A stretch of 30,075 nucleotides of DNA from a virus (lineage: Duplodnaviria > Heunggongvirae > Uroviricota > Caudoviricetes). The stretch lies in IMG/VR virus record IMGVR_UViG_2563366969_000005; one strand, given 5' to 3'. This document shows positions 1,527-9,507 of this stretch, one piece after another. Each line of letters begins with the position of its first letter. The first letter of the stretch is position 1. The position numbers were made by a program, and so were the translations under genes. The notes beneath the pieces are model-generated. The model made no database searches and was not told where the DNA came from. It was given only the letters and a program-made list of their open reading frames with translations.

Positions 1527-2387
1527 TTACACGTGTTTTTCCAATGTGAAAACTACAGCCCCGGCAGGAGTAATGTCTGTAATGTTGCATTCAAACTCAG
1601 CAGACTTATTTGACAACCTGACTTTTCCACCGGGCAAGCGAATTACATCAAAAACATCAAGAGCGCCGTCGATATCAATTAACCAGCGACCATTACTTAT
1701 ATTCGAAGCAGAACAGTCGACAAGCCAAGAGGCAGCTACACCGTCAACAAAAATCAATTCCCCTGAGTTAGAAGGAATCATTGAGGGGTCAGGATGCCAC
1801 GTTCCTGCATCCTTAAGCTCACCAGATTCAAGACGAGATTTTTTAATAGAAAAACCAGATGTGACATCTTCCCTGTTAGCTCGCATTTGCCCCTTGCCTG
1901 TTGCTAACCATTCCAGTGACGTATCGGTATCAAGAGCGCATGTAACAACAACATCACCAGGGAAAAAATCTCGCCTTACCCATGTGCTAATTGTGCCAGA
2001 GGAAATGCCGAGCAAATCACCGAGCTCCTTTTGCATGGTAAAGCCATACGCATCAAGAATCCTACGCAAAACGGTTTTACCACCATTCGTCATAATCTCG
2101 TCATAAAGCTCTTTGCCTTTTAACTTGCAACTGGCTCGCTCGTGATTTGCATTTGCAAGTTCTCCATTTACAAGCCAATTGATATCAGCTCCCGTGTCAA
2201 GACAACACCTAACTATGACATTGCCAGGTATTGCATCACGCTGAACCCAGCCGCTAACGCTGTGTTTAGCGATACCTAGCAGGTCAGCCAAATCCTTTTG
2301 CATCTTGACCCCATAGGCTGACATTAAGCGTTCCAATACGCCGTTCGTTGCACTAACACGCCACTGAACATCAAGCTCAGAACTCAT
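1527..2387 (-). CDS. Prophage repressor, CI-type, with tandemly duplicated N-terminal HTH domain
   Basis: 286-aa ORF with AGGGG Shine-Dalgarno upstream of the ATG at 2387. Residues about 15-78 and 104-168 are clear paralogous copies (shared motifs AYG..MQK.L.DLLGI, W..RD..PG.V.V.C.LDT, WL..G). Transcribed divergently from the Cox/Apl-CII operon, as expected for the immunity repressor. Confidence 0.85.
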   Translation of the reverse strand: MSSELDVQWRVSATNGVLERLMSAYGVKMQKDLADLLGIAKHSVSGWVQRDAIPGNVIVRCCLDTGADINWLVNGELANANHERASCKLKGKELYDEIMTNGGKTVLRRILDAYGFTMQKELGDLLGISSGTISTWVRRDFFPGDVVVTCALDTDTSLEWLATGKGQMRANREDVTSGFSIKKSRLESGELKDAGTWHPDPSMIPSNSGELIFVDGVAASWLVDCSASNISNGRWLIDIDGALDVFDVIRLPGGKVRLSNKSAEFECNITDITPAGAVVFTLEKHV

Positions 2388-2508
2388 AAAAACCCCTACA
2401 GATAATTTTATGGGTGTTTACAGAAAACTTTTTACGATCTATAGTGGCATTCATCGACCAAGATGCACACCACTGCACTACATTTCAAACAACAGGAGAT
2501 AATGCGAT
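2388..2508. promoter_or_regulatory. Divergent immunity-region promoter/operator interval (lysogenic versus lytic early promoters)
   Basis: 121-bp AT-rich intergenic region between the divergently transcribed repressor and the first early gene. Contains repeated tacag motifs (ctacagataa, ttacagaaaac). Exact operators were not resolved. Confidence 0.5.
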
Positions 2509-2880
2509 ATGTCAGATGCAAAATCAATCTCGACGCACGACTCGCAAAACTCACAAAATCAAACTGTGCTGCTAGATCCAACACAGTTTGATGCCATCGT
2601 TACCGCCATGCTGCCAGCTCTACAGACAATGATTCGCTCCGCTATGTCAGACACGATGACTGTGAAAGACTTCGCCGCTACTCGCGGTGTTAGCGAGCGT
2701 CTGGTCTGGCAATGGCTCGATGAGGGAGTCCTTCTCAAAGCTCCGACCAAAGACTTTTCCAACAAAGAGGAAGCTGCTAAACGAAGCCGAACCCTCGTAA
2801 ACGTAAAAGCATGGCGCGATAAGCTGACTCAACAAGCGATTGATTGTCGCTACATCGACCAGCGCACCGCTCTTAACTGA
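2509..2880 (+). CDS. Cox/Apl-like early regulator, possible excisionase
   Basis: 123-aa ORF, first gene of the lytic early operon, with AGGAGA 9 nt upstream of the ATG. An HTH-like segment (TVKDFAATRGVSERLVWQWLDEG) is present. The role is assigned by position in P2/186-type switches and is not verified. Confidence 0.55.
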   Translation: MSDAKSISTHDSQNSQNQTVLLDPTQFDAIVTAMLPALQTMIRSAMSDTMTVKDFAATRGVSERLVWQWLDEGVLLKAPTKDFSNKEEAAKRSRTLVNVKAWRDKLTQQAIDCRYIDQRTALN

Positions 2881-2912
2881 ATTTGATTATGCAAGTTAGA
2901 GGGAATTTAACC

Positions 2913-3422
2913 ATGTTTGATTTTCAGGTTTCCAAACATCCCCACTATGACGAAGCATGCCGCATTTTCGCACAGCGTCACAATATGGCGAAGCTGGCCG
3001 AGCGTGCAGGTATGAACGTTCAAACGTTACGTAACAAGCTCAACCCGGAACAGCCTCACCAGTTCACGCCGTCTGAATTGTGGCTGCTGACTGACCTGAC
3101 CGAAGACTCAACCCTCATTGATGGTTTTTTAGCGCAGATTCACTGCCTACCATGCGTGCCGGTTAATGAGTTGGCTAAAGACAAATTGCAGTCTTATGTC
3201 ATGCGCGCAATGCGTGAACTCGGCGAACTGGCGAGCGGCGCGGTATCTGATGAACGTCTGACCATTGCCCGTAAGCACAACATGATTGAAAGCGTTAACT
3301 CCGGCATTCGCATGTTGTCATTGTCGGCTCTGGCTCTGCATGCACGTCTGCAGACTAATCCAGCTATGTCGAGCGTGGTCGATACCATGAGCGGTATTGG
3401 CGCATCGTTTGGTCTGATTTGA
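2913..3422 (+). CDS. cII: Phage regulatory protein CII (186 CII / CP76 family)
   Basis: Translation MFDFQVSKHPHYDEACRIFAQRHNMAKLAERAGMNVQTLRNKLNPEQ... matches my recollection of coliphage 186 CII. Start ATG 2913 has AGAGGG 9 nt upstream. The ORF track's longer 2883 start is a TTG with a second ATG at 2889, judged less likely. Confidence 0.85.
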   Translation: MFDFQVSKHPHYDEACRIFAQRHNMAKLAERAGMNVQTLRNKLNPEQPHQFTPSELWLLTDLTEDSTLIDGFLAQIHCLPCVPVNELAKDKLQSYVMRAMRELGELASGAVSDERLTIARKHNMIESVNSGIRMLSLSALALHARLQTNPAMSSVVDTMSGIGASFGLI

Positions 3423-6746: not shown

Positions 6747-6766
6747 TACTGTATAAATATACAGTA
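6747..6766 (+). promoter_or_regulatory. LexA operator (SOS box) overlapping the promoter of the downstream operon
   Basis: tactgtataaatatacagta contains a perfect CTGT-N8-ACAG core (CTGTATAAATATACAG, 6749-6764), palindromic and AT-rich in the centre. A TTGCTA -35-like hexamer lies at 6733-6738. The operon ATG is 20 bp downstream. Confidence 0.8.
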
Positions 6767-6785: not shown

Positions 6786-6968
6786 ATGGTTGGCGAACAT
6801 TTCAGCCGAACGCAGCAAAAGTGGGCTTGTGTGCAATTTATTGCCGAGGTATCTCTGATTACAAACTGCAAGCCATCAGACTTAAAGCTCGCGCTCACTC
6901 TCATTGCAGACCTAGCAAACAGCGAAAATAACGAAACCGAAGATGATAATTTTTATAAGGCTGATTAG
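6786..6968 (+). CDS. Small SOS-operon protein, possible Tum-like antirepressor N-terminal part
   Basis: 60-aa ORF with GGGAGGG upstream, directly after the LexA box. Ends at a TAG that is in frame with the DinI-like gene 3 bp downstream. Confidence 0.5.
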   Translation: MVGEHFSRTQQKWACVQFIAEVSLITNCKPSDLKLALTLIADLANSENNETEDDNFYKAD

Positions 6969-6971
6969 ATT

Positions 6972-7205
6972 ATGAGAATCAATATCACGCTGGATAAAGA
7001 GCAAAAAATTAGTCAGGCAACATTGGATGCACTTGAGGCTGAACTGTACCGCAATCTTCAACCTATTTACCCAAAGACTGCTATCCGAATTCGCAAGGGC
7101 TCCGCTAATGGCGTTGAACTAAGCGGTTTGAAACTGGACGAAGATAAAAAACGAGTAATGGAAATCATGCAGCAGGTATGGGAGGACGATAGCTGGCTGC
7201 ATTAA
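6972..7205 (+). CDS. DinI-like protein (DinI / 186 Tum C-terminal domain family)
   Basis: 77 aa. MRINITLDKEQKISQATLDALEAELYRNLQPIYP...MEIMQQVWEDDSWL aligns by eye with E. coli DinI (MRIEVTIAK...ALAGEL...ISEILQETWE). LexA-box control fits an SOS-induced function. Confidence 0.85.
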   Translation: MRINITLDKEQKISQATLDALEAELYRNLQPIYPKTAIRIRKGSANGVELSGLKLDEDKKRVMEIMQQVWEDDSWLH

Positions 7206-7400: not shown

Positions 7401-7610
7401 ATGCATCGACTACCGGGCGAAATTCCGCAGCACAAAACTAAAAGCATCAAACTGATGGCCATCGTTCATCGTCTGCAGCAGATAATGGTCAATGAGAATT
7501 TGACACCCGCCGAGCTGGTCGGGTGTGCCGAAATAGTCAGGGATAATTACGGCACGCTGGATAGCATCAGCAAGCCGACATATTACTCACCGCCACCACG
7601 TCGACCATAG
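7401..7610 (+). CDS. Hypothetical small protein in the SOS operon
   Basis: 69-aa ORF with GAGGG 7 nt upstream of the ATG. Followed directly by repeat copy 2. Confidence 0.5.
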   Translation: MHRLPGEIPQHKTKSIKLMAIVHRLQQIMVNENLTPAELVGCAEIVRDNYGTLDSISKPTYYSPPPRRP

Positions 7611-7612
7611 AT

Positions 7613-7681
7613 AACGCCGCCGGAGCTGAAACTCGATTTCAGGTCTGGCGGGGTTGAACAACGAGCTACGCGAGGCGTTAG
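7613..7681 (+). repeat. Copy 2 of the duplicated ~69-bp hairpin-containing element
   Basis: aacgccgccggagctgaaactcgatttcaggtctggcggggttgaacaacgagctacgcgaggcgttag, immediately after the stop at 7610. Roughly 85 percent identical to copy 1 by eye. Confidence 0.7.
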
Positions 7682-7743
7682 CCGGTCATAGCGTCGCAAA
7701 TACTTCAACCGTCTGCTGGTTAAATAATTCGAGGTTTTTGGAC

Positions 7744-7938
7744 ATGCAAAATCCCCTTTCATCGAAAAATGACCCGTTTGCCGATTGGGCAAAGAATCTG
7801 ACTTTAATGGCTTTAAATAACGATCTGAGCTCTCGCGAGGTGGAAAGCTACACCGCAAAAATGGTCGAGCAGGCCGGTAAAGATGAGCTATCAGTCGTTA
7901 TCAAACACCTGTTAAATCACATCAGAATGCGCAAATAA
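7744..7938 (+). CDS. Hypothetical small protein in the SOS operon
   Basis: ATG 7744 with GAGG 9 nt upstream. The ORF-track version starts at a TTG (7654) inside repeat copy 2 and is judged too long. Confidence 0.45.
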   Translation: MQNPLSSKNDPFADWAKNLTLMALNNDLSSREVESYTAKMVEQAGKDELSVVIKHLLNHIRMRK

Positions 7939-7954
7939 GAGGAACTATATAAAT

Positions 7955-8056
7955 ATGTTATCTCTCGTTTATGAAAATCCGTGGACGACGATTTTTCTGA
8001 TGATTGTCGCCAGCATGTGCCTCAACAGTGTTATTGGCGCATTGCGCGGCCATTAA
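7955..8056 (+). CDS. Possible 33-aa hydrophobic peptide (MLSLVYENPWTTIFLMIVASMCLNSVIGALRGH)
   Basis: Short ORF below the ORF-track cutoff, translated by hand. AAGAGG lies about 12 nt upstream. It ends about 20 bp before a strong intrinsic terminator and has one predicted TM-like segment. Could be fortuitous. Confidence 0.25.
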   Translation: MLSLVYENPWTTIFLMIVASMCLNSVIGALRGH

Positions 8057-8076
8057 TCGCGACAAAACCAGACTAA

Positions 8077-8105
8077 AACCGGCACCCTGAATGCCGGTTT
8101 TTTTA
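8077..8105 (+). terminator. Rho-independent terminator ending the early/SOS transcription unit
   Basis: Stem aaccggca (8077-8084) / tgccggtt (8092-8099) with loop ccctgaa, followed by a run of T (through about 8104). Confidence 0.7.
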
Positions 8106-8264
8106 TGCCATTTTTCCGCGAACTTCCCGTTTTTTAGTCGTGCATGCATCAGGTGCATGGTTTTGCATGCGTCAGTCTTGCCCGTTCTGTCCGTGCGCCG
8201 CCAGAGCTAGCGCGGATCCAGAGTTGTCATGCAACTGCATTAAAACCGACCCATAAAGCGGGCA

Positions 8265-8283
8265 GGCGTGGCGGGGAAAGCAT
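8265..8283 (+). other. cos: cos site (19-nt cohesive-end sequence, 186-type)
   Basis: GGCGTGGCGGGGAAAGCAT. As I recall it this is the 186 cohesive end; P2 is GGCGAGGCGGGGAAAGCAC. It lies between the replication/SOS region and the portal gene, as expected in an integrated P2-family genome. Confidence 0.65.
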
Positions 8284-8502
8284 TGCGCGCCAGCAGTGAT
8301 GCGTAATAATAAAAATTATCCTCTGAGCGCGTCGTGATGGCGCTGTCGTGGTCGCTGCTGGTTCGTTGGTGGTCGGGTGTGTTCGTGCGCGTGAGACGCA
8401 TCTGATGCGTGATGGTGGTGTGCATGGAAAAGCCACCAGGAGCAGCGGCTTTACAGGAGTGGCAGGATTCAAACTGCTAATTATGTTTCTACTATGATTA
8501 AA

Positions 8503-9507
8503 CTAATTTACATGTATGTAGAGTTCACCGTCGCCAGACCAATCGGGACACTCTAAAACAAGCCCAAACTGCTTGAATATTTCATCAATGATTATTGTTA
8601 TCTCCCGAAAATCACCAAAACCTGTAATGTGCTGGTCATTAAACTTCCCATAAAGATTCTGAAAAGCAATGCCTAATTCTGATAATTGATATCTTATATT
8701 TGAGTTGGATAGTGTAAGGGATAGCTTTGGATCGTATTCTTTAATATTGATGTTTAGAGAATGGACATAACCCATCGCATAAGCATAAGAGTTGATGATT
8801 AGCCTGATACGTTTTTTTACTTCGAGATACATGTCATTCAGAGAAATATTACCGTACTTATAACCCCAGATGAGTTTTTCAATCTCGTCAGATACTTCAT
8901 TTACAACAGTGTCAAGATTCTCTAAAAATAAATCGATAGTTTCTTGAGGGGCAGACCCCGAAGACATGTAATTAGCGAGATATTCAGACCATGCACGCGT
9001 GGCTGAGATAAGAAGCGCGCTACCATACTCGTTGACTGTAAAGTTTTGGGCTAAGCATGTTAGTAAGTTTTTTTCATGTACGTGCACTAATTCATGGTGA
9101 ATGCGATGGATGACTGCGAGGTATCCTTCTTCTTTCAGTTTTAAGAAGCTACCATCATTGAAAAGCTCAACAAAAAAATCAATCGATAGCACAAGGGTAT
9201 ATTCTTCACATAGCCCATCATTGCCAATTTTTGTTACTAACTGCCCGACGGCTGCGCCCTGTTTGCTATTGGTAAATGAACTAGGGGATTTGTGTTGGTA
9301 AGAGGATGTTACCTTTTGAAGAGCTTCACTGAAGTTATAGGAAACAATCACGCATTTTAATTTGGAGATATCAAGATTGAGATTTTTTGTTAAAGCTCGG
9401 ATAGCTTCTAGTGTGAAATTACCGATATTATTTGCTTCTTGCTCAGTAGCGAAACCTTCGAGGGTTATTTTAAAATCAGTTTCCAAAATATTAATCTCCG
9501 CGCCCAT
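8503..9507 (-). CDS. AT-rich cargo protein of unknown function with His-rich HExxH motif; candidate anti-phage defence or exclusion gene
   Basis: 334-aa ORF, conspicuously AT-rich against a GC-rich backbone. Contains IHRIHHELVHVHEKN (HELVH is an HExxH pattern in a His cluster). Lies between cos and the portal gene, downstream of Q on the same strand. Weak Shine-Dalgarno. No family recognised. Confidence 0.8.
   Translation of the reverse strand: MGAEINILETDFKITLEGFATEQEANNIGNFTLEAIRALTKNLNLDISKLKCVIVSYNFSEALQKVTSSYQHKSPSSFTNSKQGAAVGQLVTKIGNDGLCEEYTLVLSIDFFVELFNDGSFLKLKEEGYLAVIHRIHHELVHVHEKNLLTCLAQNFTVNEYGSALLISATRAWSEYLANYMSSGSAPQETIDLFLENLDTVVNEVSDEIEKLIWGYKYGNISLNDMYLEVKKRIRLIINSYAYAMGYVHSLNINIKEYDPKLSLTLSNSNIRYQLSELGIAFQNLYGKFNDQHITGFGDFREITIIIDEIFKQFGLVLECPDWSGDGELYIHVN

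Follow-up and report, generated by a model that had tools for sequence, protein, structure and literature searches.

A duplicated DNA-binding head in the CI immunity repressor of PSP3-type prophages: comparative evidence for two operator classes

Introduction

What does a phage immunity repressor do with two DNA-binding heads when a well-studied relative manages with one? The question is raised by the cI gene of the window analyzed here, a 30,075-nucleotide (nt) stretch of viral DNA (IMG/VR record IMGVR_UViG_2563366969_000005), whose 286-residue product carries two helix-turn-helix (HTH) heads, termed D1 and D2, in front of a C-terminal domain (CTD). The relative is CI of phage 186 (PDB 2FJR, 2FKD; U32222), which resembles the window CI in its PF07022 head, in the fold of its CTD and in its place within the switch. 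Few alternatives to the lambda switch are understood quantitatively, and that of 186 is among them; 186 CI forms an established wheel of seven dimers and uses one head to read two types of site, TCTCAATTGGGAGA at the early lytic promoter pR and ATTCAC-N5-GTGAAT at the sites FL, FR and pB. The window CI differs in having two heads and, as we infer, one type of site for each. The comparative evidence presented below leads us to lean, with moderate confidence, toward a division of work in which D1 acts at the core of pR and D2 at palindromes in the positions of FL, FR and pB.

Domain architecture and identity of the repressor

Pfam detected Phage_CI_repr (PF07022) in two stretches of the window CI (combined expectation value (E) 1.3e-52) and Phage_CI_C (PF16452) at residues 180-277 (E 1e-20), and PHROGs assigned the protein to phrog_4, 'transcriptional repressor'. 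A purpose-built hidden Markov model (HMM) gave residues 14-78 and 103-167 as the limits of the two HTH domains (E ~1e-35 for each), in agreement with the paralogous segments that an initial annotation of this DNA had marked at about 15-78 and 104-168. Its estimate by eye that the two were roughly half identical was likewise accurate, since BLASTP of the two halves returned 37 identical residues in 74 (50%, E 4e-25); both are HTH domains, and the repeat is free of low complexity. Alignment of 60 homologues showed that the residues invariant in D1 have invariant counterparts in D2, 89 positions further on (R20/R109, Y25/Y114, W47/W136, R50/R139, C61/C150, T65/T154, W71/W160, L72/L161 and G75/G164). 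The recognition helices are unlike, reading IAKHSVSGWVQR in D1 and ISSGTISTWVRR in D2.

An AlphaFold2 model built on the 60-sequence alignment (predicted local distance difference test score (pLDDT) 82) consists of two separate five-helix bundles and a beta-rich C-terminal domain: the first bundle spans residues 17-74, the second, with an extra N-terminal helix, residues 92-163, and the beta-rich domain residues 181-283, with low-confidence linkers at 78-86 and 171-177. The predicted template modeling score (pTM) of the model is 0.39, and therefore no fixed packing between the domains is predicted. Foldseek matched the modeled CTD to that of 186 CI in 2FKD (template modeling (TM) score 0.89, root-mean-square deviation 1.6 Å over 107 columns, 27% identity) and the whole-chain model to 2FJR (E 9e-18), a structure also found from the sequence by phmmer (E 6e-22). 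The statement of the initial annotation that 186 CI carries a single DNA-binding domain was confirmed, in that only D2 and the CTD align to 2FJR; more generally, single-head CIs of ~190 residues, 186 CI among them, align only to residues ~100-285 of the window CI. The 286-residue window CI thus departs from the canonical layout of one head plus CTD (~190 residues).

Two other assignments were considered and rejected. A self-cleaving S24 repressor of the LexA or lambda CI type was rejected because no S24 domain is present among the Pfam matches listed (PF00717, Peptidase_S24, is absent among the best 25 of 27 matches, E up to 1); LexA CTDs are only distant fold neighbors in Foldseek (E 1e-7 to 1e-4, TM 0.4-0.6), ranked behind 186 CI. 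A repressor of the P2 C type was rejected because the PHROG and Pfam matches are to CI-type families only; P2 C was not returned by profile or sequence searches with the window CI, and C and CI are described in the literature as not alignable.

By its sequence, the window CI is the immunity repressor of a PSP3-type, 186-like E. coli prophage of the P2 family. It is 97.9% identical over all 286 residues to CI of PSP3 (AY135486, AAN08403.1; a Salmonella/E. coli phage of the genus Eganvirus), which is essentially the same protein with nothing material different, and 99.7% identical to the cI product of Escherichia phage vB_EcoM-613R3; over its first 6.7 kb the window is 97% identical to 613R3 and 87% to PSP3. 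The order of genes in PSP3 is that of the window as well (int, a DUF2511 gene, cI, an apl-like gene, cII, fil and onward, A, tumA, dinI). Matches to the cI-operator stretch (window 1527-2520) occur in 68 of 5426 complete E. coli genomes; in several complete chromosomes of this species the cI-operator DNA is 100% identical, with the annotation 'phage repressor protein CI'. Searching 5.8 billion proteins with the window CI yielded 731 relatives, the best 120 of which are nearly all 277-290 residues long (two shorter ones, of 208 and 267 residues, look truncated) and come from Klebsiella, Enterobacter, Salmonella, Citrobacter, Pantoea, Cronobacter and other hosts. Among representatives of clusters at 50% identity, two heads are present in ~22 of the 127 that have a detectable head. 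Hundreds of Enterobacterales prophages share the same two-head architecture, and the tandem-CI family is common in clinical Enterobacterales.

The gene is therefore not new, being known as PSP3 cI, and its architecture is retrievable from domain databases. PSP3 CI is annotated only as 'immunity repressor', and in the one paper found to discuss its size this is ascribed to 'a longer C-terminal domain' than that of 186 CI (PMC3448106), an account that should be corrected. No description of the head duplication in PSP3-type CI was found in the literature on PSP3, PF07022 or tandem HTH domains. What appears to be new here is the realization that the duplicated head is a variant both widespread and recurrent, together with comparative evidence suggesting that each head is directed at an operator class of its own.

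Unequal evolution of the two heads

A comparison of 128 tandem CIs revealed a marked difference in how the two heads evolve. Averaged over columns, entropy is 0.34 in D2, as against 0.99 in D1 and 1.00 in the CTD, and mean identity is 90% in D2 and 69% in D1. The D2 recognition helix consists of zero-entropy columns and is invariant, D1 falls into discrete classes that are either ~95% or ~53-61% identical to that of the window, and the types of D1, D2 and CTD assort independently. Nei-Gojobori counts for D2 against phages Midge and SW9 and locus L013 (L numbers label individual loci) gave a proportion of synonymous differences (pS) of 0.71-0.87, which is saturated, with a proportion of nonsynonymous differences (pN) of 0.06-0.08, while pN of D1 against Midge and SW9 was 0.26-0.27. 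Since pN in D2 is low where pS is saturated, the conservation of D2 reflects purifying selection and not recent exchange. This pattern suggests that D1 is the variable, immunity-type-specific head and that D2 is a nearly invariant head, the counterpart of the sole head of single-domain CIs. It also gives no support to the earlier idea that one subunit could span two like half-sites, given that the heads differ in both recognition helix and evolutionary rate.

The same observations bear on a reading in which the heads are functionally redundant, both binding similar DNA, so that the extra head adds avidity and the differences in rate mark recombination boundaries. The independent assortment of D1, D2 and CTD types does point to frequent recombination inside cI, and D1 adjoins the operator, with which it would be inherited as one cassette. 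However, the helices differ at the usual specificity positions (AKHSVSG in D1, SSGTIST in D2), the strong purifying selection on D2 is at odds with recent exchange, and the operators at pR and at the flanking sites described below are unrelated in sequence; we therefore regard redundancy as very improbable.

The pR core and D1

The predicted pR (Table 1) is placed relative to the cI start as is pR of 186. PSP3-, Midge- and SW9-type phages have different DNA between the cI start and the pR -10; immediately to the right of the -10, and as far as the apl ATG, the sequence is identical across D1 types (window, PSP3, Midge, SW9). Within this variable DNA, the 13-nt spacer between TTTACA and GATCTA sorts by the D1 recognition helix: AKHSVSG is found with GRWAAYTTTTWAC, PSNSVST with SGAACTCATTTTC, HANNVSS with WCAAAAWTTTAGC, (A/S)KSNVAG with GRTAYRMAAAACR and AKSN(V/A)AS with GTTMAAYAAAGC. 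Spacers differ at 1.96 of 13 positions between loci with the same D1 helix and at 7.63 of 13 between loci with different helices, and the Mantel correlation of D1 helix and spacer distances (r 0.75) was reached in none of 5000 permutations. Pantoea loci with the same or nearly the same D1 helix (E replaces A40 in L028 and L029) retain the spacer despite scrambling of the 30 nt that precede the -35 and a saturated synonymous divergence (dS). The spacer motif of the window was not found elsewhere in the window or in the PSP3 switch region.

The spacer occupies the place of the operator in 186 and in single-head relatives. From these observations we infer that the 13-nt spacer is the site read by D1 and that it sets immunity: D1 would be the only variable reader at pR, because the repressor must act there and D2 and the CTD can be near-identical across different cores. 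The distinct immunity specificity that the initial annotation had expected of a duplicated DNA-binding module is borne out to this extent, D1 occurring in discrete types and the operator DNA at pR differing between them.

A further expectation, that the 2388-2508 interval would hold repeated operator half-sites for two like heads, did not hold up. A 13-nt direct repeat (TACAGATAATTTT and TACAGAAAACTTT, copies 22 nt apart) and a 12-nt inverted repeat were tried as operators and dropped, since they are marginal against shuffled sequence (12 of 200 and 7 of 200 shuffles, respectively) and their distal copies are unconserved. Relatives keep only the proximal copy of the direct repeat, and the distal copy is lost in L012 and L026-L029, which have the same D1 helix.

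Palindromes at the flanking sites and D2

Single-domain CIs with a D2-type head offer a direct comparison for D2. These proteins, P0133 (metagenomic contigs L006/L007) and the CI of Chimaeribacter californicus prophage L024, have a head 75-85% identical to D2 with the helix SSGTISTW(V/I)RR, the same type of CTD and a P2-like replication gene nearby; unlike the window CI they lack D1, and the palindrome ACTTGCA-N2-TGCAAGT lies between their pR -35 and -10 instead of at flanking sites. L006 and L024 represent two independent phages. In L006 the palindrome is perfect and pR reads TTGACA-ACTTGCAAATGCAAGT-t-TAGATT; L024 carries GCTTGCAAAGTCAAGA, a palindrome with 4 mismatches and the same offset as in L006.

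Tandem-CI loci were scanned with the motif ACTTGCA-NN-TGCAAGT, allowing up to 3 mismatches unless a higher count is given. Each of the 17 tandem loci scanned has a site within cI, located at +209 to +227 and showing 0-4 mismatches (that of L018 is perfect), and its position in the window is that of the annotated FL site inside 186 cI. L023 carries a matching substitution in each half-site of this FL-like palindrome, and the dyad symmetry of the core is therefore kept. A second, FR-like site in the window falls in the apl-cII junction, where the FR site of 186 is also annotated, and orthologues with 2-3 mismatches occupy the same junction in PSP3, Midge, SW9, L009-L011, L018 and L026 (4 mismatches in L013). 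PSP3, Midge and SW9 each contain exactly three matches in ~6.8 kb, compared with ~0.3 expected, and these stand at the positions of 186 FL, FR and pB, the third lying 45-60 nt upstream of the late activator gene Pag/ogr. The window ends short of this third position; an E. coli EC1 prophage that is identical to the window at both ends carries ACTTGCAAATGCAATT over the -35 of its ogr-like gene, 16 nt past the window end and at the pB position of 186. The positions predicted for binding in this switch are those of 186 CI: at pR, at FL in cI, at FR between apl and cII and at pB in the late-activator promoter. Conversely, the pR region of 20 tandem loci yields a best palindrome match with 5-7 mismatches, which equals background. 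These positions suggest that D2 reads the palindrome as a symmetric pair, as its single-head relatives must, and that its sites in the tandem phages are the distal ones and do not include pR.

One alternative, the idea of the initial annotation, is a composite operator, in which D1 and D2 of one subunit would sit side by side on an extended pR, a dimer would contribute four heads and the flanking palindromes would be secondary; the variable core would be contacted by D1, and conserved bases on its flanks (TTTACAG and GATCTAWAGTG, for example) by D2. These bases are indeed conserved in 19 of 19 tandem loci (as TTTACAG and GATCTA(A/T)AGTG), beyond the needs of a promoter, the linker at residues 78-86 is predicted to be flexible and would permit adjacent binding, the pR core is asymmetric and without a dyad, as expected for a head-to-tail arrangement, and an extra half-site is found 22 nt from the FL palindrome. 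The pR regions of the 20 tandem loci nevertheless hold no D2-type half-site above the background just given, and the palindromes at FL, FR and pB look like sites for a symmetric dimer, in the form taken by the pR operator of the single-domain phages. On balance we consider a composite operator unlikely.

TumA and the SOS operon

The Tum/DinI-like SOS operon noted in the initial annotation is present, with a LexA box, tumA and a dinI-family gene (Table 1). The antirepressor-based induction proposed there is reasonable, because TumA of PSP3 is reported to carry antirepressor activity (PMC3121763, citing a personal communication). As in 186, an SOS-controlled antirepressor would take the place of repressor cleavage; induction would proceed via the LexA-controlled tumA-dinI operon. 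A tblastn search found TumA in 10 of 50,697 phage records, which are exactly those with a tandem CI, and its identity across three D1 types is 96.7-98.3%; against 186 sequences TumA gave no significant similarity at E 1e-3. TumA, being constant across D1 types, does not follow D1 in its evolution, and its most likely target is an unchanging part of CI (D2 or the CTD); its constancy may contribute to the conservation of D2. If true, a shared TumA predicts SOS cross-induction of heteroimmune prophages.

TumA thus brings in another reading, in which D2 serves solely as a protein-interaction module, for docking of TumA or as a spacer in the oligomer, and binds no DNA, the palindromes being fossils or sites of another factor. 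The near-constancy of TumA across D1 types and its restriction to this CI subfamily are consistent with such a role, as is a conservation of D2 beyond that usual for a DNA-reading head, and the FL position is the one predicted for a fossil ancestral operator. The FR-like and Pag-promoter sites, however, fall outside the duplicated unit (see below) and are not accounted for by a fossil, and the palindrome is retained despite saturated synonymous sites, including the paired substitutions of L023. In addition, D2 shares an identical helix with single-domain CIs, in which that helix must serve DNA binding, and sites occur at all three positions of known 186 CI binding. We judge a D2 devoid of DNA binding to be quite improbable.

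Separately, L006 has a LexA box, CTGTATATAAACACAG, followed by a 64-residue open reading frame (ORF) directly after the replication gene (L006 1047-1290); the ORF product is weakly TumA-like (25% identity, pairwise E 4e-7).

A proposed division of work between the heads

Several observations weigh against the assignment of D1 to the pR core and D2 to the flanking palindromes. All head-to-site assignments are correlational. The distance between D2 helices also correlates with spacer distance (r 0.59), through shared phylogeny, and no more than ~200 nt separate D1 from the pR spacer, so that linkage and shared ancestry inflate their covariation. The pR core has no consistent dyad axis in the 15 loci scanned, which would accommodate a composite contact of D1 and D2 at pR. 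On the side of D2, its half-site assignment is backed by only two independent single-domain D2-type loci. The FL-like site lies in coding sequence, and part of its conservation is therefore protein constraint; the FR-like site of the window has 3 mismatches, and FR-like sites were not found in Pectobacterium-group loci. The motif count over the 30-kb window is 2, as against 1.1-1.5 expected, and is not significant by itself, and for this reason the case for the D2 sites rests on position and conservation. Finally, the AlphaFold2 model, with the low pTM given above, supplies no inter-domain geometry.

If the two heads do divide the work in this way, D2 would keep the ancestral specificity and, in a CTD-mediated dimer, would read ACTTGCA-N2-TGCAAGT, while D1, the added N-terminal head, would read the 13-nt pR core and thereby determine the phages that come under repression. 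A CTD-linked oligomer could then grip pR with D1 and the flanking sites with D2; the FR-like site would damp pE and the Pag site would block late-gene activation, as in 186. Such a natural relative, apparently splitting both tasks that one 186 head performs, provides an experimental handle on the roles of flanking and pR sites in repression, looping or wrapping, pE and late-gene control, and it offers a concrete path by which immunity specificity changes without rewiring of the rest of the circuit.

Origin and recurrence of the duplicated head

The offset of 89 residues between D1 and D2 corresponds to 267 nt, and several features of the locus line up at this distance. Codon 95 of the window cI aligns with Met1 of single-head CIs, and the FL-like palindrome is situated 39 nt upstream of this codon; the pR palindrome of L006 and L024 is equally 39 nt upstream of the cI ATG. 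When shifted by 267 nt, the FL-like site lands on 2412-2427, that is, on the pR -35 and spacer, and in alignments with single-domain relatives the counterpart of the linker segment is their non-coding promoter and 5' region. In a neighbor-joining tree, D1 sequences form a clade of their own without single-head members, and D2 clusters with single-head proteins (P0133, L024). The two-head architecture therefore probably arose by an approximately 267-nt tandem duplication of the pR operator together with the head. In such an event the old promoter and 5' region would have become the inter-domain linker and the old operator would have become FL; the pair of pR core and D1 would then have diversified into immunity types, and the pair of FL and D2 would have stayed ancestral along with FR, pB and the antirepressor interface.

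We propose tentatively, as a possible outcome of this history, that duplication of operator and head produced two subfunctionalized heads, such that D1 and the pR core would form a small, freely diversifying and swappable immunity cassette and the other head would keep the flanking loop sites, the repression of the late activator and the sensitivity to antirepressor constant across heteroimmune phages. If true, duplication may be a general route to new immunity types, with the tandem CI as the counterpart to the one-head CI of 186. The tree contains at least three further independent duplications, in the 4LV2017/P0137 group, the P0184/P0196/P0199 group and P0234. These other tandem CIs (4LV2017 being a Klebsiella phage) are 313-358 residues long and likewise have two PF07022 heads and a 186-type CTD; their two heads are most similar either to one another or to separate single-head lineages (D1-D2 identity 51-68%) and fall outside the PSP3 D1 and D2 clades. 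In the switch of 4LV2017, motifs of the GTGAA type are present and TTGCA palindromes are absent.

A natural split repressor was observed in L008 (3701-4570 of metagenomic contig ERZ21615822), where a 73-residue D1-only ORF is followed by 78 nt with stop codons and a 189-residue D2+CTD ORF, with a SIR2-like gene directly downstream of cI. The split form looks secondary, because its spacer is homologous to linker coding sequence. P0135, tried as a single-domain D2-type CI, was rejected as such since it has this split form (a 73-residue D1 ORF, a stop-containing stretch of 78 nt and a D2+CTD ORF). Two further arrangements were seen among the relatives: P0228 has two such heads and seemingly an S24 peptidase-type C-terminus, and P0214 is a 525-residue chain with at least 6 short HTH-like matches.

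Comparison with other repressors

Over D2 and the CTD, 186 CI and the window CI are ~30% identical, and their half-sites are unrelated, TTCAC in 186 and TTGCA in the window. P2 C (99 residues) has the same role as the window CI and the same genomic position in P2-type switches; unlike it, it is a single small domain of unrelated sequence. Engineered single-chain 434 repressors place two DNA-reading modules in one chain, which as a monomer binds one asymmetric or composite site. In a two-domain mycobacteriophage repressor, as described in PMC9283540, both modules read one asymmetric or composite site and the protein acts as a monomer. The window CI is unlike both of these in that it has an oligomerization domain and its modules seemingly address separate operator classes. 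For P2 C, PMC2995052 and PMC1904268 give direct repeats as the binding sites.

Genomic setting

The cI gene is the first gene of a leftward lysogenic operon (cI, the DUF2511 gene, int) and stands opposite the rightward pR operon, in which the apl/cox-like gene is followed by cII, fil and further genes and then by the replication gene A; the layout is that of the annotated 186 record. Coordinates are collected in Table 1.

Table 1. Features of the window, in order of the repressor, its switch region and the SOS operon
Feature	Position (nt)	Strand	Remarks
cI	1527..2387	-	286-residue ATG ORF; HTH(D1)-linker-HTH(D2)-linker-CTD
D1, first HTH (residues 14-78)	2154..2348	-	HMM limits; model helices 17-74
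D1 recognition helix GIAKHSVSGWVQR (residues 38-50)	2238-2276	-	
Inter-domain linker (residues 79-102)	2082..2153	-	residues 78-86 predicted disordered (pLDDT <50); helix 92-100 precedes D2
D2, second HTH (residues 103-167)	1887..2081	-	HMM limits
D2 recognition helix GISSGTISTWVRR (residues 127-139)	1971-2009	-	
C-terminal oligomerization domain, 186 CI type (residues 180-283)	1539..1850	-	PF16452 and Foldseek
FL-like palindrome ATTTGCATTTGCAAGT	2145-2160		1 mismatch; inside cI, codons 76-81, end of D1
Extra half-site ACTTGCAA	2123-2130		near the FL-like palindrome
Direct repeat TACAGATAATTTT / TACAGAAAACTTT	2397..2431	+	13 nt, copies at 2397 and 2419; dropped as operator
Predicted early lytic promoter pR	2417..2445	+	TTTACA-17 nt-TATAGT; sigma-70 scan 10/12
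Type-specific pR core GAAAACTTTTTAC	2423-2435		13 nt between TTTACA and GATCTA; candidate D1 operator
apl/cox-like gene	2509..2880	+	123 residues; first in pR operon; homologue of PSP3 gp30
FR-like site ATTTGATTATGCAAGT	2881-2896		3 mismatches; in the 32-nt gap between apl-like stop (2880) and cII ATG (2913)
cII (PF06892)	2883..3422	+	likely start ATG 2913, as PSP3 gp31
LexA box CTGTATAAATATACAG	6749..6764	+	perfect; only zero-mismatch match in the window; downstream of gene A, upstream of tumA
tumA	6786..6968	+	60-residue candidate antirepressor; 96.7% identical to PSP3 gene annotated tumA
dinI-like gene	6972..7205	+	second in SOS operon; PF06183 DinI, E 7e-24

The apl/cox-like protein matches phrog_3554 (E 3e-75) and, weakly, the Cox-like excisionase family phrog_575 (E 8e-5); Pfam returned no match for its 123 residues, and the PSP3 version was described in the 2011 literature as a singleton in which no domain could be detected. 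The gene is kept across tandem-CI phages. In the 2446-2508 interval TGCAC occurs twice, at 2464-2468 and 2474-2478 with a spacing of 10 nt; in Pectobacterium relatives the same place is taken by TGCAA repeats with a spacing of 11 nt. By analogy with the 186 pR-pL interval, the TGCAC repeats are probably binding sites of the Apl/Cox-like protein. A weak candidate for pL on the (-) strand, with TTGATT at 2522-2527 and CATTAT at 2499-2504, fell under the scan threshold.

Between cI and int lies a gene of the DUF2511/YebY family (1180-1518, (-) strand), whose product has a signal-peptide-like N-terminus (MKCKLFLALLL...). Its position between these two genes indicates that it is probably expressed from the lysogenic operon, and its true start is probably the ATG at 1518, as a longer ORF from 1590 would overlap cI.

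Between the tumA-dinI operon and the late packaging and head genes, a 334-residue ORF (8503-9507, (-) strand) matches only phrog_11743 (function unknown), and lies in the variable region in which accessory or anti-phage genes are often carried by P2-like phages (PMC9122126). Small ORFs are present at 7401-7610 and 7654-7938; the ORFs in 7401-9507 gave no Pfam or PADLOC match. Lastly, in E. coli S3 (NZ_CP010228.1, 692.5-712 kb) cI and gene D are each 100% identical to those of the window, and the S3 prophage is shorter by ~9 kb, since the two genes lie ~18 kb apart in S3 and ~27 kb apart in the window.

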